A stretch of 64,000 bases of DNA from Pelagomonas calceolata (taxonomy: Eukaryota): NCBI GenBank assembly GCA_918797485.1, contig CAKKNE010000002.1, forward strand, positions 4,712,001-4,776,000, read 5' to 3'. Numbering within the stretch: position 1 is the first letter of the stretch; each line of letters opens with the position of its first letter. This document shows, one piece after another, positions 246-62,280 of the stretch. The notes under the pieces were generated by a model that saw only the letters and a list, made by a program, of their open reading frames with translations, did not search any database and was not told the DNA's origin. A program made the translations under genes and the position numbers.

Positions 246-273
246 GCTTGCTAGTGTCTTACAGGCCGCTAGC
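246..273 (+). promoter_or_regulatory. Conserved double-CTAG upstream motif, copy 1
   Basis: gcttgctagtgtcttacaggccgctagc; recurs at six other intergenic sites. Confidence 0.6.
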
Positions 274-430
274 TAAAGCGCTCTCGCAACCAAAAACGAG
301 CTGTACTTGGCTTCGTGGGCAGCATCGGTGGTGATTTCTCGGTTTAAGCCCGCTGATTGATTGACGCAGCTGCCGTACAATTTGCCTGCGCTGTGCAGTA
401 CTGCACTGAGGCAAAACAACACCGCGCTGC

Positions 431-487
431 CAATGGACAAGGAAACAGCGGAGGCGCTGACGAGAACGAAGGCGCTCTACGACGCCG
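431..487 (+). pseudogene. Relic 5' end of a SHOCT-family gene (MDKETAEALTRTKALYDA)
   Basis: Almost identical to 2525..2581, the start of the intact paralog; similarity then stops abruptly. Confidence 0.8.
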
Positions 488-595
488 CCGCGGTGCTAGA
501 GACGTCGCACCCTCGCGCAGCGAAGCGGTGGTGACGCAAACGCAACACCGACACCACAAAAACCAAACAGGCAACATTGGTGGCGGACGCTCTGC

Positions 596-2089
596 ATGGC
601 CTCCTTGGCGGCGGCCCTGGCGCCGCCGCCGCCGGTGCGTATTGGTTATGTGACGGACATCGAGGGGAACCTCGACTATTTCCGCCGCTACGTGCGCGCG
701 TCGGGCGTGCTGCGCTTCGACGACGACGCGGAGACGGAGCTGCGCTTCGCGGACGACGGCTGCAGATTCGTCTTCGGCGGCGACGCGGTCGACAAGGGCG
801 ACGGCGACGTGCGCCTCTGCCGCATGCTCGCGGACCTGAGCGACCGCTACGGCCGGGACCGCGTCGCCCTGCTCGTCGGCAACCGCGACCTGAACAAGCT
901 CCGCTTCACGGCGGAGCTGTCGCCGGAGGCGCTCGCGACGCCGCCGGAGGCCGTGCCCGGGCCGCACTGGGACGACGCAGCGCCCCGGCTCGCGGACTAC
1001 CTCAAGTCGAAGAGCCTCGACGACTCGCGGGCGAACCGGCTCCGGTGGATGCTCGAGCACACGCTCGGCTGCCCCGGGACCTTCGAGTTCCGGAGGGCGG
1101 AGCTGAAGCAACTACGAAACGGGGCCGACGTGACGGACGACGACGTCGTCGACTCGTGCGTCGGCGAAGTGCTCCCCGGCGGCGCGCTCCGCGCCTACCT
1201 CGAGCGCGCGTCCGTCGCGGCGCGGTTCGGCTCGACGCTCTTCGTCCACGGCGCCGTCGACGCGCAGACCGCCGGCTTCGTGCCCGATAAAAACACGCGC
1301 TTCCGCGTCGGGAGGCACGGCGACGCGGGCTTCCCGCCGACGAAAAGCTTCATGGGCGAGCGCGACGTCGACGCCTGGGTCCGCGACCTCAACGCGCTCC
1401 TCGCCTGGGGCCTCGAGGACCACCTGGCGCGGCCGACGTTCGCCGCCGACGGCTCGCGCGGCGGCGACTGCCTCCTCGCGCTGCAGAACCGCTGCGCCGT
1501 CTGGGGCCGATCCGTCGTGTCCAACTGCTACGCCGACGGCGGCAACGTCGACTCAAGATCCGCGATGACGCGGCGCGCGCGGATCTGGGCCGCGGTCCGC
1601 GAGGGCGCGTCGACGGGCGCCTACGACGCGCGCGCGTTCGAGGCGTCGACCAAATACACGTCGGACGCTAGGGACCCGGCGGTCCACGCCTGGCTCCGGC
1701 GCTCCGGCGTGAAACGCGTCGTCGTCGGCCACCGGCCCGTCGGCGACTCGCCCGCGCTGCTGCGGGCGGCGGCCGGCGGCGTCGAGGTCGTCATGGCCGA
1801 CACGTCCTTCGCGGACGTCGCCGCGCCGGACAAGCGCGGCGCGAGCCTGGTCGTCGCGACCTTCGAGGGCGACGACCTCGAGCGCACGGCGACGCGCATC
1901 GTCGGGTCGCGCGCGGACGGGGCGAGCTACGAGGTCCGGGTCCCCGCGCCCGGCGACGACGCGGACGCGGACGACGTCCTCGGCACGGTCGACGCCGACG
2001 GCTGGTGGTGCAAGGCCCGCTGTGAAGACGGGTTCCTCTTCTCGCGCGGCGACGGGCGCAAGGTCGAGTACGACCTACGACCTCCTTAA
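596..2089 (+). CDS. Calcineurin-like metallophosphoesterase (497 aa)
   Basis: Motifs TDIEGN, GGDAVDKG, LVGNRD, FVHG, VVGH in the expected order. Confidence 0.85.
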   Translation: MASLAAALAPPPPVRIGYVTDIEGNLDYFRRYVRASGVLRFDDDAETELRFADDGCRFVFGGDAVDKGDGDVRLCRMLADLSDRYGRDRVALLVGNRDLNKLRFTAELSPEALATPPEAVPGPHWDDAAPRLADYLKSKSLDDSRANRLRWMLEHTLGCPGTFEFRRAELKQLRNGADVTDDDVVDSCVGEVLPGGALRAYLERASVAARFGSTLFVHGAVDAQTAGFVPDKNTRFRVGRHGDAGFPPTKSFMGERDVDAWVRDLNALLAWGLEDHLARPTFAADGSRGGDCLLALQNRCAVWGRSVVSNCYADGGNVDSRSAMTRRARIWAAVREGASTGAYDARAFEASTKYTSDARDPAVHAWLRRSGVKRVVVGHRPVGDSPALLRAAAGGVEVVMADTSFADVAAPDKRGASLVVATFEGDDLERTATRIVGSRADGASYEVRVPAPGDDADADDVLGTVDADGWWCKARCEDGFLFSRGDGRKVEYDLRPP

Positions 2090-2129
2090 AGTCTAAGAAG
2101 CTCCAGTGTGTGGGAAATGACTACGTCGG

Positions 2130-3498: not shown

Positions 3499-3540
3499 GC
3501 CGACGCGGGCAAGGCATCGCACGCGCCGGCGGCGGCCCAG

Positions 3541-7646: not shown

Positions 7647-9432
7647 TCACACGGCCTCGTCGCCGCGGGGCTGCTCGTCGCATATGTCGGGCGCCGGCGG
7701 CCCGCCCTCGCCCCGCTCCCTTCTACGATCAGCCTCCCTTTGTTCCAGCTCTTCTTTGGAGGCACCACCTCCAATATTATCCATCCAGCCGGCCTTGTTG
7801 TGTTTGCCTCCCACCGCCTCCTCGTCGTGGTAACCTGCGTGGAAATCATCGCGTCGACCTCCACGCCATCGACGCGACGCCACGCACCCGACACACTGCT
7901 TGATTTCCACACAGATGATAACGCTTCACGTGCCAGCCCTTCGCGTCGAAGTTCAACCCGGCGTCGCGCAGCATCGTCAGCGTGCCCCGTCGCTCCGGAA
8001 AGCACGTCAGCCGGCACCCGCCCCCGCAGCAGTACCCCAGCGAACCGCCGACGCAGCCGCGGCACGGCCCGAGCAGCCCCAGACCCTCGTGGAACTCCAT
8101 CGTCTCCGTGCCGACGGACCGCGACGCCCCGACGAAGTAGACGTCGTCGACGTTGGCCACGAAATCCTCGACGCACATCCAGAAGATGCCATCATCACTT
8201 TCCCGATCTACTCGTTTCCCCTTCATCGACGTCACGCCTTCAGCCATCCAGGCCGCGTCCTTATCCGAGTACTTTCCTTGCCATTCGCCTTGCGCGTGGG
8301 GGTTCCTTATTTTCAGTAACTTGGCGCCCGACGAGAGCTTGGCGCAGTCCAGGATGCTATAAGCATGGCCCGTGATCAACCCCTGCTCGGCCTTGGCGAA
8401 GGAGCAGCCCACCAGCATGTTTGGGGGTCGTACGTCCATGACAAACCCATGAGACAAAGTCCCATGGATGACGTCGAAGAACTGGTCGTTTGACGTACTT
8501 TGGCAGTACTTCTGGACATCCATCAGGACCCCGTGGTTGCCCGTGAAGCTTTGTAACGCTAGAATCACGTGGCCACCCTCGAGATACCCGTAGGCGCCCC
8601 ACAATTTCGCGAAGGCCTTTTCGAGTAGTAGAACCCAGAGCTCCGGGCCGTTCGGCCGCGAGAAGCGTGGGTGTAGTCCATCGTCGGTCATCGGGATCCG
8701 ATCGTCTATCACGACCGTGGTCCACCGCTCATACCGTACGTCATACAATCTTATACGGTAAATACCACAGGGCTCCACAAAATTCGTCAGGAATAGAGAT
8801 CTTATTATCTCCGGATGGGCCTCAGCTATCGCGCCGATCGCAGCGAGTAACCAGCAGTTCCCAAGGCCTCCTTGTTGCACATCTGCGGCTTCGATCTTGC
8901 CTTCAAATAACTGCGCTCTACCTTTCTCTTGGCCATCTCGCGACTCAACGACGTCCGTAGCTCTAGACCAAGGTATGGTAGCTTCCGAACAGGGGTTGTG
9001 GCAAACACACACGATCTTCGCGCAGCAACAACAAAAAAAGTCCAAACAAGGCTTCGGCCCTCGACCCAACAAGTTATACCCGATCGACGCGTCGTTCGCC
9101 GGGAACCACATGTCCCGGTACTTCGGGAAGACCTTGCCGCATCTCAGGATCTCGCAGCAAAACTTCGACAGCATCATATGCAGCGTTGTGAGTAGGCACG
9201 GGATGACGTAGATCCGCAACCAACCAAGAGCGAAGGCGAAGGGTGCCAGGAACAGATTGGCCAGACAGGCCAACAGCAGACAGAACGGCCGCGGGAAGTA
9301 CCAGCACACTGGTCCCTTTTCTTTTTGGCGCACGTCCCAGAGACACGTCTTGGACAGGGCGCAGCCCCCCACGTTGCAGCAGGGCGGGTCGCCCATGTTG
9401 ATGGTCTTGCTGGGCTGGACCTTGGCCGCCAT
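7647..9432 (-). CDS. Calpain-family (CysPc) cysteine protease with Cys-rich hydrophobic N-terminus; exons 9432-7923 and 7834-7647 (565 aa)
   Basis: Triad motifs QQGGLGNCW, GHAYS, IRNPH; LLEKAFAKLWGAY; splicing gives ...VKRYHDEEAV... Confidence 0.9.
7835..7914 (-). mobile_element. Introner element in calpain gene (intron 7835-7922)
   Basis: TIRs ctgcgtggaaatca / tgatttccacacag; TSD on minus strand GTTATCAT vs GTTACCAC. Confidence 0.9.
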
Positions 9433-18012: not shown

Positions 18013-18868
18013 TCACACAAAAGGCGGCAACAGTCGCGACGGCGTTTTCGCGGCGTAGTTCCGCCACGCGTCCCCGAACTGCTCCTCTAGGATCTTGTCC
18101 TCGCTCGCCATCCGTGGTTTGTAGAACCTCCATGCTGATAGCAGCAGTACCGCGATGGCGAGCGGCGACCCGAGACTGGCGAGGCCGCCGGCGAAGAGAA
18201 AAAGATAAGCCGTGTAGATGGGATGCCGCACGACGCGGTACGGGCCCGTCGTAACGAGTGACTCCGGCGTCACGACGCGGTCGTAGGCCCGGCCCAGCGT
18301 CCACGCGGCGCTCGCACCGATCAGCGTGCCCGCAATCCGCAACGCGAAGAGCTCTCGCGAATTGATCCACCCGCGCGCGCCGCGCCAGGCCCCGAGCCAA
18401 TGGGCCGCCCAGACGCTCAGCAGGAATTGGCCGAACTCGCCGCCGCCGGCGCCCTTCGCCGGCTCCGCGGCGCGCTCCGAGTATTTTCCGAAGCGGTATG
18501 ACCTCGGCAACGTGACCTGCGCGGACGTGTAGACTTTCATGCGGCCGCGTCGACGACGTCACGGCGACCGTGTCGTCTTGAAGCCGACTTCCCGCGCCGG
18601 TTCAGACGACTGCAAAGAATGCGAAATATTCCGTTGAGAGGCGCCAGCCGAGCGCGGGGCGGCCGCAGGCGTAGCACGGCAGCTCCACGAGCAGGCCGAC
18701 CGCGGCGGCCAATTGGACGGGCTGCAGGAGCTTTTGAGTCGGCGAGAGCGGCGTCGCGCCCGCGTCGGACTTTTTGATTGCCTCTGCCTTGCTTACAAAC
18801 CTGGCTGCCGGTAGTACAAAGGCTGCACTCACCGCAGCTATCGCGAGCAGTCTCGGTAGCATGCGCAT
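18013..18868 (-). CDS. ICMT/PEMT-family membrane methyltransferase, likely plastid-targeted; exons 18868-18611 and 18516-18013 (253 aa)
   Basis: LVTTGPYRVVRHPIY and SED..LEEQFG motifs; signal-like AAVSA-AFV; GT..CAG intron 18517-18610 restores the frame. Confidence 0.8.
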
Positions 18869-19008
18869 CGTTGCGAGCAGCTCAGGACTCACGGTGATCA
18901 TCCAAGCTGTTGCGGCCACGGGGCAGCTCAGCGATGGCGTCGATTGTGTTGGTTCCACAAATAGAGCTCCTGCGAGAGCAAGAGGCTGCCAAGAGCAGGC
19001 CCTGAGAT

Positions 19009-19035
19009 GCTTGCTAGTGCCTTACCGGCCGCTAG
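19009..19035 (+). promoter_or_regulatory. Conserved double-CTAG upstream motif, copy 2
   Basis: gcttgctagtgccttaccggccgctag, ~140 bp upstream of ATG 18868. Confidence 0.6.
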
Positions 19036-19074
19036 AAAGAATAGCACAAAACTCACAAGTTAAACAAACATAGA

Positions 19075-20025
19075 CTACCTCTTCGCCTCCGCGGCGACGG
19101 CTCCCGGCCGACGCTTCGCGCGCCGGTCGGACGCGCGGACCTTTTTGTCCTCGCGCGCCGCGGCGGAGCCGCTCTTCGCGGCGAGCTTGTGGATGTCTTG
19201 TTCCGGCGCCGCACAACCTTCCACGTCGCAGGGAAAGATCATCTGGTGGCCGTCACCGATGTACGGATCCTTCCGGTCCGCGTGGCCGTTCCTCGTCAGG
19301 CTCTGCAGCGTCTCGGTATCAGAATTGATCGACATGCGCGGGTCGAGCGGCGGCCGCACGGTCCCAAAGCAGTGCCGCTCAGTCGCCGAGCGGTACGAGT
19401 TCTGGTGGAGCGTCGAGCCGCTGTTCGTGAGGCACCGGAAGCGACACAACTCGAAATCGTCGGCCGCCTCTTTGAGAACGGCGTGGACCGCATGCTTCCG
19501 GACGAGCCGTCTCTGCTCGACGTTCCTGGGCCTCACGCAGCACGCCACGCAATTCTCGTACGTGTCGCAGCAGCTCGACGCCGCGCAGCGGTCGCACGGG
19601 TTTCCCGACGCCTGGCAGCAGCAGCCGTTCTCATCAAGGCCGTCGGGCGCGCAGACGCCGCCCCGCGAGTCGGCGACTGCGCTCGGCGACGCGCCGTACG
19701 TGTTCGCGCAGCCGGCGGCCGCGGCCGCGCGCGGCTGGCGCCGCGCCGGCGCGCCGGCGGCCGGCGGGTGGCGCACGACCGGCGGCAAGACCGGCGCGCC
19801 GCCGGCCGGCTGGTGGGGCACGACTGGCGCCGGCGGTGGCCGCGGGCGGAGCACCGCGTAGTGCGCTGCGGCCGTCATCACCAGAGCAGCTGTGAGCACT
19901 GCACCAGCAATTATTTTCAGCACGCTGCAGCGCAGGCCTCGCCTCGCGCGCGCCGCCGTGCCTCGAGGTGTTGTAGGCCTTGACAGAGGTGCTGGGGCTG
20001 CTCCCGAGAGGCGCCGCGCGGCCAT
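19075..20025 (-). CDS. SPRING1/C12orf49-like type II membrane Cys-rich protein
   Basis: TM helix, then CANT, DSRGGVC, NGCC, CCDTYENCVACC, FELCRFRCLTNSGST.HQNSY, HCF. Confidence 0.75.
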   Translation of the reverse strand: MAARRLSGAAPAPLSRPTTPRGTAARARRGLRCSVLKIIAGAVLTAALVMTAAAHYAVLRPRPPPAPVVPHQPAGGAPVLPPVVRHPPAAGAPARRQPRAAAAAGCANTYGASPSAVADSRGGVCAPDGLDENGCCCQASGNPCDRCAASSCCDTYENCVACCVRPRNVEQRRLVRKHAVHAVLKEAADDFELCRFRCLTNSGSTLHQNSYRSATERHCFGTVRPPLDPRMSINSDTETLQSLTRNGHADRKDPYIGDGHQMIFPCDVEGCAAPEQDIHKLAAKSGSAAAREDKKVRASDRRAKRRPGAVAAEAKR

Positions 20026-20285
20026 GTCAGCGGTTTTCGCACTGTATCTCGCACAGCACGCAGCGATGCGAGACTGTTCGGGTCAGCTATGCGCTGCTTG
20101 GCGCGATGCCAAAGAGCTGGCTGCCTGCCCTGTGCAGGGCCAGACTTTGCAAAGCCTGTCGTGACGCGTACGCCGCACCGATTGACGTGAGATTTTTTGC
20201 AGTGGCTTAAAGTCTCCACCGAATACAGCGTACGAATTCTGCAAGGATTTCGCAGCGTGGCCGCGCTCACTCTTGGTGCATAAGC

Positions 20286-22861: not shown

Positions 22862-22987
22862 GCGGCCGCGTCTGCCCAAGAAAGCCGAGCGAGGCGTGTA
22901 ATTTGATTTTTATGTGATTTGATGTCTCTTCTTGCTTGCCACTAGCTCCAACGCCATAGAAATTACTGGTTTGCGCGTTCATGCTTA

Positions 22988-23014
22988 GCTAGCGGCTGTG
23001 TGACACTAGCAAGC
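22988..23014 (-). promoter_or_regulatory. Conserved double-CTAG upstream motif, copy 3
   Basis: Minus strand gcttgctagtgtcacacagccgctagc, ~230 bp upstream of ATG 23243. Confidence 0.55.
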
Positions 23015-25644: not shown

Positions 25645-25651
25645 ATTAGAA

Positions 25652-28126: not shown

Positions 28127-28153
28127 GCTAGCGGCATGTAAGACACTAGCAAG
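28127..28153 (-). promoter_or_regulatory. Conserved double-CTAG upstream motif, copy 4
   Basis: Minus strand cttgctagtgtcttacatgccgctagc, centred between divergent ATGs 27936 and 28344. Confidence 0.6.
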
Positions 28154-28343
28154 GTCGGACTCGCGGGCGCCTGCACAGCTCGATACGCAAGTGTTGCAAG
28201 GCCTTAGGCCGCTCGTGCACTCGTTTGATACCCAGCTTTCGGCGTGCAGCTCAACAGCTCTCAGAAAGGGCTTGCCGCCCAGCACTGCATAGTGCCCAAG
28301 CCAGCAAGCAAGAAAGGCGGCGCGGCGCGTCGGCGAGCAAGCA

Positions 28344-39387: not shown

Positions 39388-39557
39388 CGCATTTTTTTGG
39401 CAGCCTAATTGGAGCAGGTGTGCTTGCGATGAACAATGCCTCGAATTGCAGTGTTTTTTCGTCTTGCGCTGCACCGTAGGGTCGCCTTTAGCTCCTGGCC
39501 GCACGTAAACTGGCGGTGCGTGCAAGCTTAAGCAAAAAAGCAAAAAATTGCCGATAA

Positions 39558-39580
39558 CTAGCGGCTTAAAGACACTAGAA
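39558..39580 (-). promoter_or_regulatory. Conserved double-CTAG upstream motif, copy 5
   Basis: Minus strand ttctagtgtctttaagccgctag, between divergent ATGs 39387 and 39778. Confidence 0.5.
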
Positions 39581-39777
39581 ACGAAAGCCAAGCTGGCGCG
39601 CCGCTCGACTGAGGCTATAGAATCAGTCTCCGGCGCCGCTCTGGGCTCAGGGGAGCTATTTGTCACCGGCATCGCTGCCACGCGCGCGCGCGCTGCGTCA
39701 AAGGCCGCCGCCGCGCCGGGTCAGATCGATCTGCCAAAAGCGCCTTTAAAACGCGCCGCAGCGCGACGTAGCGCACG

Positions 39778-50613: not shown

Positions 50614-50642
50614 GCTACTAACAGATTACACCACAATAAAAA

Positions 50643-53600
50643 TCAAGCCAGCCCGTCGTGCAACAACAACCGCAGGATCGCCCCGACGACGGCCGACCCG
50701 AGCACGTCCAGCTGCGGCCGCTCGGCCTTGTCCACGAGCAAAGCGTCGAAGTGCTCCCTCAGAGCAGCAACCAACGCCCCGACGCGCGCGTGCGCCGCGA
50801 AGGAGACCCAACCATCCACCACAATCGACCCCTGCAACGGCCGCGGCTCGACCCTGCCCCCGAAGAGCAGGACCGCGTACGGCGCCGCCTCGCCGCAGTC
50901 GCGTATGGACACGCGGTGCGTCTCGACGCACTCGCCGTAGACGGCCCAGGGCGACGGCCACGAGCGCTCCGCGTAGCACGACGACGTCGGGTGTAAGAAA
51001 GCTCTTTCGAGCTGCCCCGTCGGCGTCCTTCTGAGAAACCGCAGTTCCCGCGCTTGGGCGTCCATGGCAATGTTCCCCTCCGACGTCTCGGCGTATTTCT
51101 GCGAGGGCTTCTCGATCTTCACTAAACGCGGATACAGCGCGCCGGCGACGACCGCGCGTGCGACGCGCCAGAGCGCCGGTCCCGACAGTTGCGTGGCGTA
51201 CGACCCGAAGCCGCGGTCCGAGAGCGCGCCGTCCAACTGTTTGACTAGGGACAACGCGTCCTCCAAGGGGTCCGCGCTCAAGCCGCGCTGCGCGCACCAG
51301 TCTCGTAAAGCCCGTTTCCGCGCCCAGCCCCGCTGTGACCTGTGCGCAAATCGACCAGTGAGTCGGGTGCAGTCGCGTCGATGGCGTGGAGGTCGACGCA
51401 GTGAGTCGGGTGCACGCCACCGAGCAGGCATCGCGTCGATGGCGTGGAAGGCACCGTGACGTGTTGATGCACAGGTTGGGACGAAGCCTCGGCATAGGCC
51501 CGCAACGCCAACGCATCTAGGGCGTGGTCCGACCGGCCGCAGCCGTGCCGCTCCCGCAACTCCTGGCGGAATTTTGCTGCTAAAGGCCTATCATCAGGAT
51601 GCGACCGCCACGGGCTTCTCCCCCCTAGACCGGCCGCGACCCGCAACGCCTCGTCGCGCACGCCCAGGGACGCCCCGAGCACCAGGAGCTTGCCTAGTCT
51701 CGGCGCGCACGGGAGGTGGGCTAAATGACGGCCCAATGGAGTTAACTTCTTTGACGAGACAGCACCCAAGTCCGAGAGCTCCCGCAACGCTTGCTGTAAC
51801 GTATCAGGTGAAGGAGGATCGAGCAGCGATGGAGCAAAGGTCTCGACGTCGAGGTCCATCGACAGGACTTGCAGACACAACCCATCCAAGCCGACCCTAT
51901 GGATCTCCGGTGTGGTGTGCTCCCCAAAGCCCTCGAAGAAGGACTTGGGACACAGCCGGTAGCACCGGCCCCGCCGCACGCGGCCCGCCCGACCTTTCCT
52001 TTGCTTCGCGGCATCCTGGCGCACCCACACCTCCTTCAGACACGGTAACGACCTAGAAGCGTCGTAGCCCGTCTCCTTGCATCGCAACGTGTCCACCACC
52101 GCCGTCACGTCGGGTATGGTGATACTGGTCTCAGCCACATTGGTAGCAACAACTATTTTTGTTTTACCTTTAGGTGCCGTATCGAAGGCTCTACGTTGGT
52201 CCTTTGCGGGTAGGGAACCATGTAAAGGTAGGGGGTACAATGTAGGGTCTCGCTCCAGTATTCTACAGATCTGTGTTATTTCTAGAGCACCACTCACGAA
52301 GACCAATACCGCACCGGTTGAATCTCTCTGAAATTCATCCAGAGCGATAGCTCGACAGGCGTCGGCGACGAACTGCACATCCAATCGTTGCGGCGTCGCC
52401 GTCCAGGCCTCCTTTTCTCTACGAGTCATCTCTTCGTCCTGATCTAGTAACCTCTTGACATCATTCAAATAACTCACGTCGACGGGATGCGCGAATCCTG
52501 GTATAGATAGGACGGGACACCTGCCCTTATATAGCTGAGGATTGAGATCGGCGAAGTACCGCGAGAACCGACTCGTGTCCATCGTTGCCGACATCAGGAT
52601 GACTCTCAGGGAAGGTCGCTTTTGTAGTAGTGGCCTTAGTAAAGCTAACAACAAATCGGCATCCAGGTGCCGTTCGTGCACCTCATCGACAATCAGGTGT
52701 GTTATGCCTTGTATATTAGTGTCGCTCCTTAGACGTTGTAGTAACACCCCAGTCGTGCAGAACAGCAAATGGGAGCCCATCGACACTTCCCCTCTTACTG
52801 CTACTCCGACCGTACTACCGACGTGTTCGCCCCGTTCTTCAGCGACTCGGGACGCGACACCCACCGCAGCCACTCGCCTTGGTTGGGCCACCACTATCTT
52901 GATCGGTTCAGTCGCATTATCTAATAAAAATTGGGGCACCTGGGTCGTCTTACCACATCCGGTACCGCCCTCAATTAACATGACCTGGTACTTGGATACC
53001 GTATCGATAACGTTGCTAGCCTCTTTGTGCGCGGGCAGCGTCTTCCGTTGTAGTGTGATGGATGTCCTAGGCTGCGATGGCGGTGGCGGGCCATTCGAAG
53101 GCTGCGACCACCAGTCGGGGCCCCGTCGACGCATGCGCCGCGGCGGTCGCGGTGCGACGACGGGCGCCGCCTTCGGTTGAACGACGGGCGGCGGCGGCGG
53201 CACATCCACAGGATTCTTAGCAGCCTCGACGAGATCGAAGAGCATGGGCTCGCCCACCAAGGAGAAGGCGAGCGTCGCCCACGCCGCATGTGCTTTTTGT
53301 GACGCGCCCTTCTTGAGGACCATGGCCGGTATCGACGGGTACGTTGATGGTACCAGCAAGCACGCGTCCCCCATGGTCATCACCGAGCCCTGGTCCTCTT
53401 TTACAGCAGTAACGTCGAGCGTCGCCTCGAGGGCCTCGATTTCATCAGTCTCACCACCTTCCCCCGCTTCGAAGGACGCGTCCGGCCTTGCGAGTCTAGC
53501 GCATTGGGTCCACCTACTACAAAAGTCGCCCTCAACCGCAAAAGAAGCTACTTTGCGAGAAACAACAACGTCCAGATTCGCGCCGCTCTTCGGGTCGAAC

Positions 53601-54807
53601 GTCTCCGGTAAATCGCCCTCGTCCACATGGAGACATAAATGAGCCAACGCCGCCTCGGTAGCTTGCAAGGCATCATTTGTTGATGTCGTAGCCACGGCCT
53701 CGACGGCCTGGCCCGGCCGAAAGCCTAGACCAACTAAGTGTTGCGCCGCGTCCCTCTTCGCACCTTCGAGGTCTGCCAATTTTTGGAGGTCGTTCGAACT
53801 TCCACCGTCGTCCTCCTTTGTTCGCTGTAAACCTAACGCCTCCACGACGGCGCGCCTTACGGAAGGCGCCATATAAACTCGAGCGTCGGGGTTGGCCCGC
53901 TTCCGCGCCTCCCGCGCGTGCGTCCTTTGGTTCCGGACGGCCTCCTTGGCGCGCCTCGCCCTATCGGCCTCGGCCCTCGACGCGTGGGCGCGGTCCATCG
54001 TCGGCACTACTATAGAAGGCTTCTCCGGCGCGGCGGCGGCGGCCTCCTCGAGATTATTCTTCGAGCCCTTGCGCGGGAGCTTCGCCGGCTCCTTCTTCGC
54101 CGTGGCCGCGCCTGCGTGGAATCAAATTTCGGGCGCCCCACGCCGTCGACGCGATGTTGTCCCCGTGGCAGCGTCGGCTCGATGGCGTGGAGGTCACGAA
54201 GGTCCACGCTATGATTTCCACACAGGCCCGCGCCCATGGCGAGCCACGTGCTCCGGTAGGGCTCCGGTAATTTCCGCTCCAGAGGGAGACTCCCTTGCGT
54301 CTGCTTCAGAGCTAATAGCGCAGCATTCTCCTTCGCCACACTTTCGGAAGGAAACGCCTCGGCGGGGCAGAAGGCCAGGTCGTGCTCGGCGCCCCGCCTC
54401 TTGGGATCGGGCACGATACACCTGGAACGGTGCTTGCCCGGCGGCGCGGGTTTGGCCGGGTGCCATCTAGGTTTCGGCCGCTTCTCGCGCTGGCACCACT
54501 CACCCAGCATCTGGGAGGGCAACTTCTCGTGCGTTTTCAAGGTCAAACCCTTCACTTCCTTGGGACCCTTGTCCGTGAGCTTCGACGCGATGCGCTGGTC
54601 CCGACTCCCTTTGCCGACCCATTTTTGCACCTCGCCGTCCCATCGGAAGCCGTGGTCGGGCTTGCCGTCCTTTTTCGTGGGGCGTTCCGGCCTTATGCCG
54701 CACTCGCACCGTCTTTCACACTCGCAGCGTTTTTGTACTGGCTCCTTGCCCTTGCCCTTCTTCTTCTTGTCGGCCTTCGAGGGCGGCGGGGGCTTGTCGC
54801 GACCCAT
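50643..54807 (-). CDS. DHX57/DHX29-like DEAH-box RNA helicase; exons 54807-54234, 54111-51483, 51339-50643 (1299 aa)
   Basis: GGTGCGKTT, QPRR, DEVH, MSAT, TNVAETSIT, QRKGRAGR; dsRBD-like and UBA/RWD-like N-terminus; OB-fold-like C-terminus; introns restore the frame. Confidence 0.92.
51340..51474 (-). mobile_element. Introner in helicase (intron 51340-51482)
   Basis: Ends ctgtgcgcaaatcgaccagtgagtcggg ... gatgcacag; TSD on minus strand GTCCCAAC vs GTCACAGC; two internal tcgcgtcgatggcgtgga. Confidence 0.85.
54112..54225 (-). mobile_element. Introner in helicase forming a GC-AG intron (54112-54233)
   Basis: TIRs ctgcgtggaatca / tgatttccacacag; TSD on minus strand GCGCGGGC vs GCGCGGCC (7/8). 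Confidence 0.9.
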
Positions 54808-55006
54808 CTTTCTCGGCAGCGATGCGCGCAGCGATGCAGTGCTGCAGCACACAGCGATTGAAGGCTGCAGTGATTGATGCTAGCTGTACCAGCAATGCAG
54901 CGCGCCGCAGCAATCGACACAACGACGAGAAACGATGTTAAACGCTACAGGAGCACCCCTGTCCAGCAGTACGTCCGTCTACAGCCCCGCCACAGTAGTC
55001 GAGGCG

Positions 55007-55032
55007 GCTTGCTAGTATCTTACACCGCTAGC
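55007..55032 (+). promoter_or_regulatory. Conserved double-CTAG upstream motif, copy 6
   Basis: gcttgctagtatcttacaccgctagc, between divergent ATGs 54807 and 55199. Confidence 0.55.
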
Positions 55033-55198
55033 TCCGCTCCGTCCACTTCTCCCACACGCAAACTACTAAACTACGTCGTCTCCGACGCCTCGAGTTGAGG
55101 TACGATTCGCATTTGCTGGGAGTTTGAGTCCTGTTGACTCTCCGGCCGCCAGAGAGCCGCCAATACTGCTGCACTGGAAGGCGACTAGGACGCACTGA

Positions 55199-56290
55199 AT
55201 GCTGCGGCTAGCGAAACGGTTATTCAGACGCGGTGGGGACGACATGGCAGCGCCCTCGATCGACGCAAAAGCCGACACCGCATCGGAAGACACCTCCGCG
55301 GCGACGACCGCATCAGTGTGTGACCTGCTGATCGGAAACAACCTCCTGCAGGGGTACTTGGGCGGTGCGGACGCGCTTCGCTTGGAGGTCGTGTCGAAGC
55401 GGCACCCGTTCGGGAAGGATGCGCTGCGCAACCGCACCCTGCTCCGATTCCCGAGCAACGACGAGGGATTTAGTTATAAATGGTGGCAGTCGCCTTTGCG
55501 TCACATTCTGGATCGCTACCCGAACATACGAATTATCGACGCAGAAATATCGACCATGGACTGCATAGGAGACGACAATCGCCGCTTCCTACACGTCCTG
55601 ATGATCGAGTTGGCCGGCGCATCCCTGCCGCACCTGCGCGAGCTCCAAGTACCGGAAGCCTACTTGTCCGTGGAGCGGTATATGGTCTGCCAGGAGTACC
55701 CGCACCTCGTCGTGACACCAGCGCTTGATGCTTCCGTCGAGCAGTTCCTGGCGGCGGGGTATGCGTGCGGAAACCGCGAGGAGTATCCCTGGCGAATCCA
55801 CCGTTGTCACCAGTATGAGGAACCGAATGGCTGGTATATATTTTCTGCGCCGGGCACGGATGGCTACAGTGCAAAATTAGTAAACTATGAATTACGGGGC
55901 GGGATCATATACTACGAGGCCGTCATTCGAACGCCGGACAAGGACATCCGGGTAACCTGGGGGGACGCCAACTCACCCCTGAACGGCGACATCGAGGCCC
56001 TGGTGGACACTTGGCACGATCAGATCTATGAGGCATTTGGCGCTAGCCGGCACGGGCCTTCGTATGAACTCGAACCGCCCGGGCTGATCTATGATATCGT
56101 GGCTGATCTGTTGAACAACATGGATTGGGAGGGAGAAGCGTGGCTTGCGTTCGAGCGAAGCTGCCGAGAAGATTACGAGGAGCAACAGCGCGAGTCTTTC
56201 CAGCGGGGCGCCTTCGATATGCTGTTATATTACATGGCGGATTTTTATGGGAATGACGTCCAGATCACCATCATGGCTCGTCGCGGCTAG
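55199..56290 (+). CDS. Hypothetical protein (363 aa)
   Basis: ATG-initiated ORF with globular-like composition; no family recognised. Confidence 0.7.
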   Translation: MLRLAKRLFRRGGDDMAAPSIDAKADTASEDTSAATTASVCDLLIGNNLLQGYLGGADALRLEVVSKRHPFGKDALRNRTLLRFPSNDEGFSYKWWQSPLRHILDRYPNIRIIDAEISTMDCIGDDNRRFLHVLMIELAGASLPHLRELQVPEAYLSVERYMVCQEYPHLVVTPALDASVEQFLAAGYACGNREEYPWRIHRCHQYEEPNGWYIFSAPGTDGYSAKLVNYELRGGIIYYEAVIRTPDKDIRVTWGDANSPLNGDIEALVDTWHDQIYEAFGASRHGPSYELEPPGLIYDIVADLLNNMDWEGEAWLAFERSCREDYEEQQRESFQRGAFDMLLYYMADFYGNDVQITIMARRG

Positions 56291-56323
56291 GTCCTAAGAG
56301 TACGGTATATATATCCAGAAGAC

Positions 56324-59300
56324 TTAGAGACTCGTCAGCTCCGCCGCGCGCGGGCTGTACCCCTCATCCTCCATCACTTTCTTGCGACTCCGCACCGAAT
56401 CGGAAATCTCCTGCTTCCGTTCTTTGCCATAATTTTCATAACCAGGATAGTCCAAGTAAACCACGGAGTCATCTTTATCAAATATGGTCACGTCCGGCGC
56501 GTCCCCATCGTCGGCGTCCGCGTTCGGGACTTCTATTTGGTCGTCCGCGGCACAAAAGATCAGCTTCTTCTCGACGAACTCCTGCCTATCTATTTGTATT
56601 TGGACATCCCCAGGAACATCTTCAATCACCAACGCCGCCAACTGCTTCGCCACCACCATCCCGTGGTACAGGAAACAAAAGGTGATGATGCGGTGCGCGT
56701 TGTTCCAATGTGTGAGGAACTCGCCCGTATATGTAATAATGATACTATTCGTAAAGACCGCGATATACGACAGCAGTTCGATGATGTCCGCCCAGGAGCC
56801 AATGTCCTCGGCGTTTTGTGGCCAAGGGCGTCTGCTGACCACCGAGATGTTCCAGGCGTCCACCCGGATCTGGGCGTAGGCGTTTATTAACGCGAGCATC
56901 GGCGCTAGAGGTAATGCCGCGACGAATAACACGGTGTAACCATATATAAGTACCAAATCTCTGTAGTCTCCAAAAGTACCTAACATATGATGGTATTCGT
57001 CCAGCTCCAGCTCCCGTTCGGCAGGCGAGATGTCCCGAGAAACAACCTCCTCCTCCTCGGGCGGCTCTTCGCCCAGCGCGGCGTACTCGTCGAGCCTCTC
57101 TTGCTTCGCCATCTCATCGAGTTCGGCCCTTCTTTGTTCTTGGATGCGGTCCTTCTTCCACCAGAAGTGGGGGATCATGATCTCCTTGACGTTGGCCAGC
57201 ACGACTTTCGAGATGAAGATAGCTTGTAATTGTTTATTCAATTCCGACATACAGGTGCCCTTGCAGCCATAGCTCCCGGGAAACGGCTGCAATATGGCGC
57301 GGTTCGCTTGGAGTTGCTTGAAGAAGGCTATATATATATAGGAGAAGAAGGAGTTGATGCCCTGGAAGATGAAAACCTTCTCGGTTAATTTATCCGTAAA
57401 CTCGGTATCGGTCGCGTGGTTCTCGTAGCGATTCAAGAACAGAGCGAGTTCATTAAACACGTTCTCCAAAGCGAATATTTGTGCAGCTTGGGCTAGCGAC
57501 ACAAGCGTGTTGCCGATCTCGCCGGACATGTCAACACCGAGCCAGCGCGGGATGCCGTAATTCTTGACGCATTTGGGAGAACCAGAGAATTGCCTCTGGT
57601 TCTTCCTGCAGTTCCAGTGGCGCGTGTTCAGCAAGTTATTTCTCACCGCTAAGATAGCCTTCAAAAAAAATGTAGCTATAACAAGGGCCATCACCGCCGT
57701 AGAAGCCACGAGAATGACGGTCCACGCGATTAAATTCCTTCTAGCCTTGATGTTCGGCGGGAAGTATTTGATTTCCTCGCCGTCGACGGGCGAGTTGATA
57801 TCTATAACTAAGTCACTCTCAAGAAAATCAGGTCTTTCTTCTTCGATCTCCTCGATGCCCACCATGCCCCACTCCATGGCATACCTGCTTTGCTTTCTCT
57901 TCCACGTTTCCAAGAACACAGTAGCCCATACTGACATGACGACGCAAAAAAACGGTATGACTGGCGAATTCACGCCGCCCGTGAGACACGCCGCGAGCCA
58001 CACGATCACCCCAATAATCGCCGCGACGCCGGCCTGCTCCGTGTAGTGGCCCAGGAACACGAAATACAGGCCGATCTTCTCGCCAAAATAATCCTTGATC
58101 TTCACGAACGGCTGGTCCCACCTGCGGCGGTGTCGCGTGACGCGGGGCGTCTCCCCGTGGTCGTCTCCACGAGAGATGATCGAAGTCGGGCGCGACGCGA
58201 GGACGCCGCGAGACGTACGGCCAGCTCCAATACACGAGCCACTTCGCCTGGCAGGCCTGCAGTTCGCTTCGATCGTGCAGCGGGAACGCCGCCAGGATGA
58301 TTTCAGCTTTGAGCAATTTCTCGAGCACCAATCCGGCGCCGTTTTCGTTCGGGTCGCACTTCAGGATGCTCATGATCAACTTCACGCGATCGACCGACCG
58401 GAACATGCTTGACGTCCGAGGGTACTTCTGATATAATGATTGCAATTCCGGATTCGAGCGGTACTCCCCGTAGATATACTCGTAGTACCTGCGCGTGATA
58501 TGCATCGAGTCGCGATCTCGCCCGAACCCACGGCCTCGTCTGATGGAGACGAGTCGCGGCGATGGCGTAAGGAGGGATATATAGGGCGCCGCTGCAAACG
58601 CGTACGGGCACTGGTCCTCGGTGTCGGTGATGGCCGTCTCCATCTGGAAGCCCTTGTAGGTCCAGCCGTTCTTGCGCGGGTAGACGTCGTACTCGTCGGG
58701 GTTCAGGGGGTCCGGCTGGCCATCTAGCAGTCGTTGTTTCACATTTCTTTCATCTAAACGAAACTTCATATTCAACCGATCCGCTTCCTCCTCGAGTCGC
58801 TCGCGACTAGCTCGGATCTTGATGAAGACCTTGTCGAACTTCCTGGACTTGTACTGCTCCGTCTCCAGGTCGGCGTTCTCCAGCGCTGAGACAATATTAC
58901 GCATACTGTTTTTTCTTTGTAGGTCATCTACGAGCTTATGACCCTCGTCCTTAATAGAAGTAACAATAACAAAGTCGTAGTTCCAGTTCTGGCCCTCCTC
59001 GCGACTCTGGAACTTGTCCTTGACGAACCGGTACCTGTGTGTGATGTATCGAGTCGCGATCTCGCCCGAAACGCGCTCAAAATCCAAAATGAGACCACCC
59101 ACGTCCATCATTCCTGGAGACGAGTCGCGTCGATGGCGTGAAGGCGCCGCAGCACCGCGGGACGCCGGGTCCGTACTCCGGGAACTCGTCGATCTGGGCA
59201 GTAGCCATGTGTAACAACTGCTTGAGGCAGAACATCACGAACGCAATGTTCGCGAAGATCGTGATGCCCGGCGTGAATCGCGACACGATGGTGTACTCGA

Positions 59301-59637
59301 AGAAGACGGCCTCCGTCGCTGGGGGTGGGGTGGTTGTGGTATTGGTGGCGTTCGTCGCTTGCAGGAAGCGCCGCGCGAAGTGCTCGTCGGTCATGAAGCC
59401 CGCCCCTAGGTCATGTAGTGGTCTTTTTGGGACTATGAATGACGCTATGAAGCATACGAATGGGATTGCTACGAATACGTAGTTGTATAAGCGCAGCGGT
59501 TCCTGGGGTAGGTAGTCTTTTATTGATGAAACGCGCCGCCGTCGTCCCGGTCGCGGCTTTCTAGCCGGCGGCGCTTGTTCAGCGGCGGCGTCCCAGTCGT
59601 GGGGCGTGGGGCCGTCGGTGTCTCGTCGGTGGCGCAT
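56324..59637 (-). CDS. Anoctamin/TMEM16 channel-scramblase; exons 59637-59177, 59034-58606, 58488-58219, 58121-56324 (985 aa)
   Basis: FPLHD, QP...IKDYFGEKIGLYF, WKRKQ, ENH.T.TEF, YGYTVLF...PLAP, RRP...AEDIGSW; three introns give a continuous frame. Confidence 0.92.
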
Positions 59638-60081
59638 GCTTGTGTTGGGGCTGCCTCTGGTCCTGTTGTGTGCTTTCAGGGGCAGCCCTGGCGCCTGGCT
59701 GCCGAAGCCGCCACGCACGCTAGCGTCCGCTGCGGCGTCTGCCTAGCAGCGTAGACCTTTTGGTGGGCGTAGCCCTTTTGTTTTTGGCTCCCTCTCGATG
59801 GCTTTTGCTTGCGAAATGCTAGCTTCCCCGCACGATGCACGCCACGAGAGCGGTGCGCCCAACTCTCTGAGGCTCGTGGAAGGGATCGGATGCGTACGCA
59901 GACGAATAAAAAGTTTAGGCCTCCAGCCCTCGATGCCTCTGCGCAGCGGCTCTTAGAACGCAGGCAGTGGCCGCAGACTCGAAGCGCGCTTGATTCGGAC
60001 ACGCAGGAATCATTTAATTGCTCTCTGCAAGCAATTGCTGCTTACGCGAACGCCGCATCTGCCCTACACAGGGAGAGCAGC

Positions 60082-61320
60082 ATGGCCTCATTAGCTGGCT
60101 TTGCTGACGCCAAGCGCAGCACACCGGTGGCGTCCGAGCAAAAGCCAGCCACGACCACCACGCCGGCGCAGCGCTCCTCCGCACCGCTCGCCGGCTTTGC
60201 GCCTGCTGCAAAACCATTGAGCGGTTTCGCGCCCGCCAAAAAGCCGGTCGCAAACGGCTTCGCCGCCGCCAAGCCGGTGCGAGCGCGCACGGGCGCCGCC
60301 GCGATTCCGCCCGGGAGGGATGGTGGCGTCGTCCCGCGCGGCCCGCGCCTGTCCGACAAGTGGGTGTCGGGCGGCAGCGCGCGAAAGGTCGTGGCGGCGC
60401 CGCGCGCTCCCTCGTCGCGGGACGTCTGCGACGACTGCGGCTGGCGCGACTGCCAGTGCGCGCACCGGAAGGTCGTGCGCGTCGTCCGGGCGCCGCTGCC
60501 CGCCGGTGCGGCCTGCCGCGTGTGCTTCTGCGGCGAGGAGGACGAGCCCCTCTGGCAGCCCTGCGCGTGCCGCGGCGAGTCGGCCTACGCCCACGCTTCT
60601 TGCTTGAGAAAATGGGCCGAGATGGCGACGGTGAGCACGGCCGCGTCGTACGAGTGCCCAACTTGCAAGACGCGGTATACGGGCCCGACCGCCGTCGCGC
60701 TGGCCGTGGATCGGGTGGATTTGGAGTACGATAGGTCTGGTTCCGACTCGCGGCACGCCGACGTCGCGTGCGCGAATCTCGTCGTCGTGGGATTGCGCGA
60801 GGGCACGACCATCGACGCGGCGCTGTTGCGTCGGCAACTGCGCAAGGACACGCGGCGGGACCGCCTCGACTCCGTGCTCGCCTCCATAAAGAAGTGCGAG
60901 CAAAAACGCGACAAGGCCATCGAGGCGACGAAAGCGTCCCTGCTCGACGTTGATGAAGGGGCTTTGCGCAAGAAATGCGACGCGCCCGCGTCGACGGCCG
61001 CCGAGCAGCTCTCCCGCGCCGACTCGCGACTGGAACTAGCCTTCGTGCTCGCGGAGCGCTGCGTCCGGCGGCTCAACGACCACACTCGATCTCGCGACGA
61101 GGATCGGAAGTTGCAAGTCGCTGCATCGGAGGCGTTATCGCTCGCGCAAGCCGCGCATGGGGACGTAAAGCGGATACTCGGCCCGAATCACGACGACACA
61201 CGCCGCCACCTGCGCTGCGTCGGCCGCCTCCACGCTCTCGATAAGCATCTCCGCGAGGTGAACGCGCAGCGGGCGAAGCGCGAGAATTTGGCCGAGCGGC
61301 TGGCGCGCGTGGATTGTTAG
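60082..61320 (+). CDS. RING-CH (RINGv, C4HC3) domain protein
   Basis: CRVC...PCACRG....AHASCL..W...CPTC; first ATG 60082. Confidence 0.8.
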   Translation: MASLAGFADAKRSTPVASEQKPATTTTPAQRSSAPLAGFAPAAKPLSGFAPAKKPVANGFAAAKPVRARTGAAAIPPGRDGGVVPRGPRLSDKWVSGGSARKVVAAPRAPSSRDVCDDCGWRDCQCAHRKVVRVVRAPLPAGAACRVCFCGEEDEPLWQPCACRGESAYAHASCLRKWAEMATVSTAASYECPTCKTRYTGPTAVALAVDRVDLEYDRSGSDSRHADVACANLVVVGLREGTTIDAALLRRQLRKDTRRDRLDSVLASIKKCEQKRDKAIEATKASLLDVDEGALRKKCDAPASTAAEQLSRADSRLELAFVLAERCVRRLNDHTRSRDEDRKLQVAASEALSLAQAAHGDVKRILGPNHDDTRRHLRCVGRLHALDKHLREVNAQRAKRENLAERLARVDC

Positions 61321-61345
61321 GTTAAACTTGTACACACTATCACAC

Positions 61346-62197
61346 TTAGTAGTAACCACAGTGGGCCCAGAGCTTCACGATGTGACGGACGACGTCTGCG
61401 TTAAGATGCGGAAATTTCGGGACGAATATCGCGACGAGGGCGTCCGTGTGTTCCTTCTCGTAGGCAGCGAATGACCCTGCTCGCTGGATTTGGGTGAGGT
61501 ACGAGAAGCGCTGCCGGCGAAGGTGCGCTGGTATCGCATCCCAGGAGTGCCGAGGGAAAGCTGCGCCGGCCCGCAGGAGTAGTGGGTAGATGCGGTGCAC
61601 CCGTGGCCGGTTGTTGACCCTGCCTGTTTCAATCGCTCTGTCTAGCGGTGTCCAGTAAGGTCCCGTAAAGTTCCCAGTTTGACGATCACGGTCCTGGCAC
61701 TTCGCGTCCACTTCGGCGCCAGCAGCTAGTAGTAGCTGAACACATTGCGGGCATTGCTCAGCTGCATAGTGTAGCGGCGTGCTACCGAGGTAGTTGGGCG
61801 TCCGGGGATTGCTTCCCGCTTCTAGAAGCAGCTTGATGATCCGGGCGTGGCCATAAATTGCCGCCCCATGGAGCGCTGGAGTGCCGGGCGGATTCGGCGA
61901 CGCGCCCGCGCGCAGGAGCGCGACGACACAGGCCTCTTGATTTTCTTGAGTTGGGCGCACAATTTCCCCTGTTGAGAGTCCAAAGTTCAGTCCCCCCGAC
62001 GCATAAAACAGAGCCGAGCGCTGAGGCCATTGGTGTAACCAGCCATTTATATGTGGAGCAGTACGAGCAGCACTTGCTAAATCAGGTGAGACCCCCGCCG
62101 CGAGTAATCTGCGTATCTCTGCGACGTCGCCGCGCCTGGCGGCAGCTAGGAATGGGTGACCTATGCTTGTTGTCCCTTCCAACTGCAGATCCGCCAT
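61346..62197 (-). CDS. Ankyrin-repeat protein
   Basis: ALHGAAIYGH..IIKLLLEAG, TPLHYAA, TPLDRA. Confidence 0.85.
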   Translation of the reverse strand: MADLQLEGTTSIGHPFLAAARRGDVAEIRRLLAAGVSPDLASAARTAPHINGWLHQWPQRSALFYASGGLNFGLSTGEIVRPTQENQEACVVALLRAGASPNPPGTPALHGAAIYGHARIIKLLLEAGSNPRTPNYLGSTPLHYAAEQCPQCVQLLLAAGAEVDAKCQDRDRQTGNFTGPYWTPLDRAIETGRVNNRPRVHRIYPLLLRAGAAFPRHSWDAIPAHLRRQRFSYLTQIQRAGSFAAYEKEHTDALVAIFVPKFPHLNADVVRHIVKLWAHCGYY

Positions 62198-62253
62198 GTT
62201 TGACAACAGGGGCCGATAAATGCGGTAGTTATACTTACAGGATAGGCGCGGAG

Positions 62254-62280
62254 GCTTGCTAGTGTCTTACCGACGCTAGC
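62254..62280 (+). promoter_or_regulatory. Conserved double-CTAG upstream motif, copy 7
   Basis: gcttgctagtgtcttaccgacgctagc, between divergent ATGs 62197 and 62474. Confidence 0.6.

Follow-up and report, generated by a model that had tools for sequence, protein, structure and literature searches.

A recurrent bipartite double-CTAG motif as a probable promoter-proximal element in a Pelagomonas-like pelagophyte

A motif of 27–28 bp with the form G-CTTGCTAGTGTCTTAC-(2–4 nt)-CGCTAG-C occurs seven times in the window, i.e., the entire 64-kb stretch of DNA analyzed here, and is probably an orientation-independent promoter-proximal site for a putative sequence-specific factor, likely fixing transcription starts on one or both of its sides. 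The window is 63% GC and intron-poor, has introner-like repeats and contains one gene per ~2 kb, statistics that are in line with a Pelagomonas-like pelagophyte as described in part of one published source (PMC9481584).

Matches to the 16-mer CTTGCTAGTGTCTTAC with up to 3 mismatches number six in the window against 0.17 expected. The looser pattern CTAG-N10-16-CTAG is matched nine times against 2.17 expected, a count reached by none of 100 shuffles, and these nine comprise the seven copies and unrelated matches at 4285 and 16851. On a combined score, the window is bimodal: six copies reach 22–24 out of 24 and one reaches 18, with nothing at 19–21, and the rest of the window scores at most 17, the same as simulated sequence. 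The preliminary description had reported seven copies, and each was recovered in both place and strand, as were the spacing of 12–14 nt between the two CTAG cores and the unrelated nature of the flanks, which show no alignment among the seven window copies. It had also placed every copy outside coding sequence, which is borne out by the lack of coding potential at all seven.

Four copies lie between divergent gene pairs, three of them near the midpoint, just as had been claimed. Copy 4 (28127..28154, minus strand; 23/24) marks the midpoint of its gap, 191 bp from the ATG at 27936 (minus) and 190 bp from that at 28344 (plus). Copy 6 (55007..55032, plus strand; 23/24, with a 2-nt spacer) is 200 bp from ATG 54807 (minus) and 167 bp from ATG 55199 (plus). 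Copy 5 (39557..39583, minus strand) is the most diverged at 18/24 and keeps CTAGTGTCTT and GCCGCTAG; it falls within the non-coding 5' extension of the ORF 37834–39672, 170 bp from the likely start of that ORF at ATG 39387 (minus) and 195 bp from ATG 39778 (plus). The fourth, copy 7 (62254..62280, plus strand; 24/24, with a 3-nt spacer), is placed 57 bp from ATG 62197 (minus) and 194 bp from ATG 62474 (plus). Outside the divergent gaps, copy 3 (22988..23014, minus strand; 22/24, CACAC replacing CTTAC) is flanked by the poly(A) site at ~22898–22917, which belongs to the upstream gene, and the start of an FGGY-kinase gene. Copy 2 (19009..19036, plus strand; 22/24) occupies a tandem gap with minus-strand genes on both sides, 40 bp past the stop (19075) of a SPRING1-family gene, and copy 1 (246..273, plus strand) is a perfect match, GCTTGCTAGTGTCTTAC-AGGC-CGCTAGC, at 24/24, with its left side beyond the window.

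A distance of ~140–230 bp to at least one ATG, which had been proposed for every copy, stands for copies 3–7 (167–229 bp, at least one supported ATG) and fails for the other two. At copy 1, the ATG at 433 that had been invoked is without coding support, and the next supported one (596, plus) is 323 bp to the right; at copy 2, the nearby plus-strand ORF is antisense to the SPRING1-family gene, and the candidate served gene, the minus-strand ORF 18013–18540, has its ATG at 18540, 469 bp away. The absence of copies from convergent gaps is true of the window but weighs little, since such gaps make up only 12% of its non-coding positions. By a hand tally of the window's gene calls, there are about 18 promoter-bearing gaps, and the motif is present in six of them, with one further copy at the window edge.

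Starts at the level of single nucleotides were obtained for two of the seven copies, on 5–9 molecules each, from stranded poly(A) RNA-seq, which is not a 5'-end method. For the FGGY-kinase gene, RNA 5' ends pile up at 23046 (plus strand), 32 bp beyond the 5' edge of copy 3, with five molecules in run X24 and a step in plus-strand depth from 3.8 to 18.2. For the Rtf2/NOSIP-like gene, they pile up at 28097 (seven molecules in X21, nine in X24) and 28107 (five in X24), both on the minus strand and 30 and 20 bp outside copy 4, respectively, on the motif's 3' side. Thus, transcription leads away from the motif at these two copies, on its 5' side in one case and its 3' side in the other, beginning 20–32 bp beyond its edge, which puts the motif center ~33–45 bp upstream of the start. 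Coarser strand-specific depth steps at copies 2, 6 and 7 agree with starts near the motif: minus-strand RNA depth rises 2–5 fold in the bin adjoining copy 2 on the left; minus-strand RNA ends and plus-strand RNA begins inside the 267-bp bin of copy 6; and plus-strand RNA starts inside the bin of copy 7, the minus-strand gene there being silent in the runs used. Copies 6 and 7 are without pile-ups because expression is low. At least three other genomic loci yield reads that contain the motif, with up to a median of 83 nt of upstream sequence. The position of copy 4 also receives reads from other transcribed copies, and of the 19 flagged as foreign by a variant at 28136, 17 carry the motif in consensus orientation. 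Some other loci are therefore transcribed through the motif, and the start is not always ~30 bp outside it.

The gene context seen in the window can be compared with that in marine metagenomes, where at least 120 contigs match a strict form of the motif; genes on these were called with our own codon log-odds ORF caller, and one duplicate locus pair (L029/L080) stayed in the gene-context counts. Only 2 of 122 copies among the matches listed lie in an ORF, and a weak one. The neighboring genes mostly turn their 5' ends toward the motif (left side, 50:14; right side, 46:20); taken together, 96 of 130 neighbors (74%) among the matches listed are 5'-facing versus 57–58% at random non-coding positions, a moderate enrichment (p ~7e-4 against 0.60). 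The median distance to the ATG is 162 bp on the left and 194 bp on the right, and 75 of the 96 5'-facing ATGs are at 50–250 bp with just one closer than 50 bp, again among the matches listed. Where both sides are known among these matches, 15 gaps are divergent, 21 tandem and 4 convergent, with the motif in both orientations; convergent gaps are not depleted (4/40 among the matches listed versus a 12–21% baseline). A/T homopolymer runs of at least 4 occur within 30 bp of the motif in 50 of 104 copies on the 3' side and 32 of 104 on the 5' side, and in 9–22 of 104 in the farther 30-bp windows, all among the matches listed. A Pfam match was found for 33 of 70 adjoining ORFs among the matches listed, the families including Ras, V-ATPase d, kinase, Hsp33, ubiquitin and carriers, among others.

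The preliminary description had read the motif as an orientation-independent promoter element, a reading in keeping with its placement outside genes, mostly beside 5' ends and in either orientation, and with the RNA 5' ends close to it at two copies. A putative protein would read it as two halves, 16 bp on the left and 7 bp on the right, across a flexible spacer of 2–4 nt, and a site this long and information-rich suggests a binder that is dimeric or has several domains. Such a factor, aided by the A/T tracts on either side, may keep the site nucleosome-free and direct initiation, which in divergent gaps of ~400 bp would run in both directions. As the neighboring genes are functionally diverse, a general promoter module is more likely here than a regulon signal. 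Selection also seems to maintain the copies: decayed versions form no tail in the score distribution, and the metagenome locus of a relative that is orthologous to copy 3 (L072) and 76–87% identical overall has retained the motif. This bears out the conservation at orthologous promoters that had been suggested as a check, for one orthologous pair, in which the window copy has 3–4 changes, in the weakly conserved part of the motif; presence/absence variation was not seen in this pair.

An unlikely alternative is a role in chromatin or genome maintenance rather than in promoters proper, either as an insulator or roadblock keeping crowded transcription units apart or as a recognition site for replication origins. 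It is long and information-rich, as sites of architectural proteins are, with flanking A/T tracts, and, with genes spaced at ~2 kb, it sits between transcription units, sometimes midway between divergent genes and, at copy 3, after the upstream gene's poly(A) site and before the following start. The results are compatible with this role and the promoter role alike, and a single factor could serve both. For a replication origin, one site per 9 kb would be dense, and the preference for 5' gene ends is not a known trait of yeast origins.

We consider it improbable that the motif marks insertions of a very short element, mobile or templated (for example a MITE terminus, a REP-like palindrome or a Helitron end), that are tolerated between genes and play no part in promoter activity. 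Near-identical copies with sharp boundaries would befit such an element, as would the introner-like short repeats in the same genome, but nothing is shared past 1–2 nt on either side in 114 unique copies among the matches listed, where information is at background beyond G(-1) and C(+1)T(+2) and stays under 0.12 bit beyond -2 and +3. The longer shared flanks that had been named as the mark of a transposon are thus missing in these 114 copies. A second copy is present at 10 of 120 loci among the matches listed, some in tandem or inverted, and in places the motif abuts another dispersed repeat (joint 21852 to 28152; L099, L092); the paired copies, however, have no constant spacing (53–1660 bp among the matches listed) and are of mixed orientation. 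Target-site duplications do not rise above permutation for k = 3–8 at any boundary (best 6 of 123 among the matches listed versus 2.2 expected). The 7-bp arms GCTAGTG and CGCTAGC form an imperfect inverted pair within the motif, but the hairpin is weak (z-scores +0.24 to -2.23). The 3' end of a Helitron is CTRR, next to which stands a T of the host, and a GC-rich hairpin lies a few nucleotides upstream. Solo termini of a Helitron-like element, raised earlier as an alternative, are not supported by this comparison: the flanks are unshared, C rather than T follows the 3' CTAG in 100 of 114 copies among the matches listed, and there is no strong subterminal hairpin. The element-internal sequence that Helitron termini would share on one side is absent (114 copies among the matches listed), and so are the target-site duplications and the inverted termini at a constant distance that a MITE or TIR transposon would have (53–1660 bp among the matches listed). 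Further against a mobile element are the lack of a decayed-copy tail in the window with retention of the site at the ortholog and the RNA 5' ends adjoining the motif at two copies.

Spreading would nevertheless account for thousands of identical 27-bp sites, the creation of which in near-identical form by point mutation is unlikely, and a mobile origin is compatible with a present-day promoter role. It is a long shot that both hold, with the motif being a self-spreading 27-bp module, the eukaryotic counterpart of bacterial REP elements, at thousands of intergenic sites, each copy bringing a factor-bound two-way initiation site; were this true, a large share of the alga's promoters would have been born by insertion and not by gradual evolution.

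Very improbable is a role in RNA, as a hairpin or protein-binding element of a 5' or 3' UTR or part of a small non-coding RNA: poly(A) reads from other loci contain the motif, in consensus orientation in 17 of the 19 variant reads, a stem of 5–7 bp is possible between the two CTAG arms, and copy 2, 40–66 nt past a stop codon, may be in a 3' UTR, but the motif occurs in both orientations relative to adjoining genes, lies on the opposite strand from both neighbors in 15 of 21 tandem gaps and could be in a sense 3' UTR for only 14 of 64 left neighbors (both among the matches listed), the main 5' ends at copies 3 and 4 are outside it and directed away, it folds no better than shuffles (z-scores +0.24 to -2.23), invariance is as strict in the conserved "loop" (TCTTAC) as in the "stem", which never varies and so cannot show covariation, and no Rfam family or tRNA was found in the window.

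The motif is restricted to one lineage: it has no matches in viral contigs and just two in 596 billion bases of prokaryote genomes, both the same identical sequence of 60% GC, present as a single match in each of two marine MAGs. Being nearly absent from prokaryote genomes, it tags contigs of this eukaryotic lineage that were mis-binned into prokaryote MAGs. In the literature, neither a description of the motif nor anything on promoters of Pelagomonas-like pelagophytes was found in print. Few small eukaryotes of the open ocean are more abundant than such algae, and the motif would offer a strong handle for locating their gene boundaries and transcription starts, in metagenomes as well as genomes. 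It could inform promoter design for transformation and is a bait for the putative factor, which may be a lineage-specific general transcription factor. It also bears on promoter birth, through the rise of thousands of near-identical long sites.

Parallels might be struck with several known systems. Bacterial REP elements and the 3' termini of Helitrons are short, occur dispersed and contain an imperfect palindrome, the Helitron end being CTAG-like; the alga's motif shares these traits but is without shared internal sequence, a host T after CTAG, a strong hairpin or a decay series. The cores of BEAF/DREF sites are short and of the CGATA type. As with the BEAF-32/DREF sites of Drosophila, at least as presented in part of one source (PMC3483549), a sequence-specific element is found between close divergent genes in a compact arrangement. 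The motif differs from those short cores in its 27–28 bp, and the likeness is one of gene arrangement. The sites of the yeast general regulatory factors Reb1, Abf1 and Rap1 are 7–13 bp long, orientation-independent and located in promoter gaps, where poly(dA:dT) tracts border them; the genes they serve are functionally diverse, and read-through can be blocked at them as well. The alga's motif resembles them in its flanking A/T runs, its probable position upstream of starts and the diversity of its genes, and differs in being 27–28 bp long. Lastly, the ZNF143/Staf site (SBS) of vertebrate promoters, at ~18–20 bp or more, is information-rich, lies near starts and works whichever way it faces; the genes it serves are many and unrelated, and bidirectional promoters often contain it. 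The alga's motif is similarly long, probably near starts, present in both orientations and associated with diverse genes, whereas it is unrelated in sequence and lineage and has a bipartite build of its own, with two CTAG cores and a variable spacer of 2–4 nt.

The double-CTAG motif is a real, conserved and lineage-restricted promoter-region motif. The window is 63% GC eukaryotic DNA with ~30 genes and few introns, in agreement with the statistics in the main text of the Pelagomonas genome paper (PMC9481584; 63% GC, 0.45 introns per gene, introner-like introns), and no Rfam families or tRNAs were found in its 64 kb. A pattern scan recovered all seven copies claimed in the preliminary description (copies 1–7, at 246(+), 19009(+), 22988(-), 28127(-), 39557(-), 55007(+) and 62254(+)), and these make up seven of the nine CTAG-N10-16-CTAG matches in the window, against 2.17 expected, with none of 100 shuffles reaching nine. 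The left half, CTTGCTAGTGTCTTAC, has six window matches at ≤3 mismatches against 0.17 expected, and the seven aligned copies share 16 invariant columns. Scored together, the two halves give a bimodal distribution, in which six copies reach 22–24 of 24, that at 39557–39583 scores 18, and all other window sequence stays at or below 17, the same as simulated sequence. Searched by itself, the right half-site (CGCTAGC) has 13 window matches, five of these within the double-CTAG motif, and the number outside it is near chance expectation by a rough hand estimate. The flanks of the seven copies do not align, as had been claimed.

The strict pattern CTTGCTAGTRYCTTAC-N2-5-CGCTAG was scanned in three public collections, with matches in at least 120 marine metagenome contigs, in no viral contigs and in two contigs from prokaryote genomes. 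Both of the latter (L121/L122; G001:C54, G002:C24) are one identical 60–61% GC sequence assigned to two marine MAGs, each with that single match, and probably represent mis-binned eukaryote DNA. One of these MAGs is labelled gammaproteobacterial and the other archaeal, and in their shared sequence the motif has a typical T-run flank. Flanking sequence was retrieved for 80 loci among the marine metagenome matches listed, and the conservation profile draws on 114 unique listed copies flanked by 80 bp or more. In these, G precedes the pattern at -1 in 91/114, while C follows at +1 in 100/114 and T at +2 in 62/114; past these positions the information content is at background. Of the listed copies, 70 have a 4-nt spacer, 29 a 3-nt, 14 a 2-nt and one a 5-nt spacer. 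The sole window-orthologous locus among the matches listed, L072, shows 76–87% identity across 2.6 kb spanning the copy-3 region and keeps the motif, with copy 3 differing at 3–4 positions in the less conserved part.

Gene context was assessed with an ORF caller based on codon log-odds, trained on 22 Pfam-supported window ORFs and run on 122 metagenome copies among the matches listed, with the duplicate locus pair L029 and L080 still included in the counts. Only 2 of the 122 lie over any called ORF, a weak one with a score of 16. Genes flanking the motif on its 5' side face it with their 5' ends in 50 cases and with their 3' ends in 14, and those flanking it on its 3' side do so in 46 and 20 cases, respectively; thus, 96/130 (74%) of the ends facing the motif are 5' ends, against 58% (window) and 57% (loci) for random non-coding positions. 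Among the listed gaps with both neighbours called, 15 are divergent, 21 tandem and 4 convergent, the last against a baseline of 12–21%; therefore, convergent gaps are not depleted. In the tandem gaps the served gene lies on the motif's 5' side in 15 and on its 3' side in 6 (p = 0.08). Median distances from motif to ATG in the listed metagenome copies are 162 and 194 bp, with 75/96 falling in 50–250 bp and one below 50 bp. In the window, the first supported ATG is 323 bp downstream of copy 1. Copy 2 is found 40 bp beyond a stop codon and 469 bp upstream of the next ATG on the minus strand, and copy 3 occupies a tandem gap, 229 bp upstream of the ATG of the FGGY gene. Copies 4–7 lie in divergent gaps, with ATGs at 191/190, 170/195, 200/167 and 57/194 bp, respectively, the ATG at 39387, where coding potential begins, being used for copy 5. 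Pfam matches were obtained in 33/70 flanking ORFs scanned, several of them beginning at profile position 1–2, which supports the start calls; the matches are functionally diverse, and the idea of a regulon was rejected on this diversity of neighbouring genes. The FGGY-kinase ORF is itself joined in frame by splicing to a ribulose-phosphate 3-epimerase ORF through a 65-nt GT..AG intron (24608–24672, 12 supporting reads), giving one open 778-residue kinase-epimerase fusion (23243–25644, plus strand). A protein-atlas search for the organism gave nothing but generic epimerase clusters, with no taxon.

Evidence from RNA comes from four raw runs of stranded poly(A) RNA-seq from the same organism; ~6–12% of each was read, with reads placed on 18700–28699 and 54650–62649. 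Reads with the first mate on the minus strand cover plus-strand genes, e.g., the FAD oxidase gene at 20286–21764, and the read ends recorded match upward depth steps at 22015, 59957 and 59792, and were therefore taken as RNA 5' ends. At copy 4, upstream of a minus-strand Rtf2/NOSIP-like gene, minus-strand 5' ends fall at two places outside the motif's 3' edge: 30 bp away at 28097 (7 and 9 molecules in two runs) and 20 bp away at 28107 (5 molecules). Between this copy and its RNA 5' ends lies a perfect inverted repeat, TTTTTTGC-ACG-GCAAAAAA (28108–28121, minus strand). At copy 3, plus-strand 5' ends fall at 23046, which is 32 bp outside the 5' edge (5 molecules from a single run); the poly(A) site of the gene upstream is at ~22898–22917, so that this copy sits within an untranscribed spacer. 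For copies 2, 6 and 7, RNA changes are at the level of 267–333 bp bins: minus-strand depth rises 2–5 fold to the left of copy 2, minus-strand RNA ends and plus-strand RNA starts in the bin of copy 6, and plus-strand RNA starts in that of copy 7; expression at copies 6 and 7 is too low for 5' end pile-ups. There are also promoters without the motif, with starts at 59792/59794 (minus), 59957 (plus) and 22015 (plus) and no copy nearby. The first of these belong to the anoctamin gene and the second to a RINGv gene, their divergent 5' ends at 59792–59957 being 165 bp apart with no double-CTAG motif between; the first in-frame ATG of the RINGv gene (59890) is upstream of its RNA start, so the true start codon is probably later.

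The anoctamin gene has three spliced introner-like introns (58119–58217, 58486–58598 and 59030–59173; 97, 111 and 142 nt), the last of which belongs to a repeat family found in six metagenome loci among the matches listed. Other introner-like repeat sites lie at 54110–54226, 7831–7881, 43384, 45005 and 51376–51434, and many RNA reads of other copies fall on such repeats. Nine occurrences of the introner core CGTCGATGGCG are in the window and 28 in the listed loci, and its string gave chance matches only in the literature.

The best-supported reading is that the motif is a DNA-level, orientation-independent, promoter-proximal site of a putative sequence-specific factor. The centre of the motif would lie ~33–45 bp upstream of the starts to one side or both, and A/T tracts flank it. 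Among the 104 listed copies, A/T homopolymer runs of at least 4 occur within 30 bp on the 3' side in 50 and on the 5' side in 32, against 9–22 in any farther 30-bp window, and 70 have one on at least one side. On the 3' side of the listed metagenome copies, a T-run with an A-run after it is a common feature of the first 30 bp. The orientation-independent core-promoter element first proposed stands in part: the occurrence in both orientations, the preference for 5' ends (96/130) and the outward RNA 5' ends at copies 3 and 4 favour it, while transcription runs through some copies. A less likely role, that of an insulator or roadblock, would fit the present data as well as the promoter reading does.

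The transcribed copies are seen in reads from at least three other loci, in which the motif forms part of the RNA and unrelated sequence (median 37–83 nt) continues past one or other edge; this runs against a simple promoter picture. One such locus has a relative in the metagenome locus L046. A variant at 28136 marks 19 foreign reads, with the motif in consensus orientation in 17/19; this 17:2 bias at 28127–28153 is explained by none of the readings. A role at the RNA level is disfavoured, since the motif can face either way relative to genes, is antisense to both neighbours in 15/21 tandem gaps among the matches listed, and is not part of the main transcripts at copies 3 and 4. A spliced leader, an idea prompted by loose read ends, was rejected because the sequence flanking the motif in the foreign reads is unrelated on either side and the motif's spacer varies. 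Foreign-locus reads with differing continuations, mostly of minus-strand RNA, are also numerous at a second dispersed intergenic element (…CTAGGACTAGTGGGCGGAGCCCCTGGGGGGGAG; 21808–21852), 44–88 bp past the FAD-oxidase stop codon, which recurs in L023, L074, L092 and L099 and directly adjoins the double-CTAG motif at some genome sites (read joint 21852 to 28152).

As to origin, the motif may have spread through a copying mechanism other than Helitron or MITE. Helitron ends are followed by a host T. The solo Helitron-like termini offered as an alternative in the preliminary description find no backing: C, not T, follows the 3' CTAG; no target-site duplication of 3–8 nt was found at any boundary offset among the matches listed (best 6/123 against 2.2 expected); no flank is shared around the motif among the 114 unique copies listed; and no decay series of motif copies exists in the window. 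A second copy occurs in 10/120 listed loci, 53–1660 bp away and in mixed orientation, and MITE pairs were rejected because the spacing is not constant. Together, these observations argue against Helitron ends or MITEs. The arms GCTAGTG and CGCTAGC are able to pair, with folds of -1.5 to -7.2 kcal/mol (z-scores +0.24 to -2.23), and a hairpin or cruciform was rejected, the stems being weak and no better than shuffles.

No description of the motif was found in the openly accessible literature; its string gave only a chance primer match, searches on pelagophyte or Pelagomonas promoters, motifs, transcription start sites and cis-regulation found nothing relevant, and the main text of the Pelagomonas genome paper (PMC9481584) has no occurrence of 'motif', 'promoter' or 'intergenic'. 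The motif is similar in kind to long promoter motifs already known. Vertebrate ZNF143/Staf sites are long promoter motifs, and the sites of yeast general regulatory factors have poly(dA:dT) flanks; the double-CTAG motif would be like both in kind. By the same analogy, it may be likened to the Drosophila BEAF/DREF sites at head-to-head genes, as portrayed in the abstract of PMC3483549.
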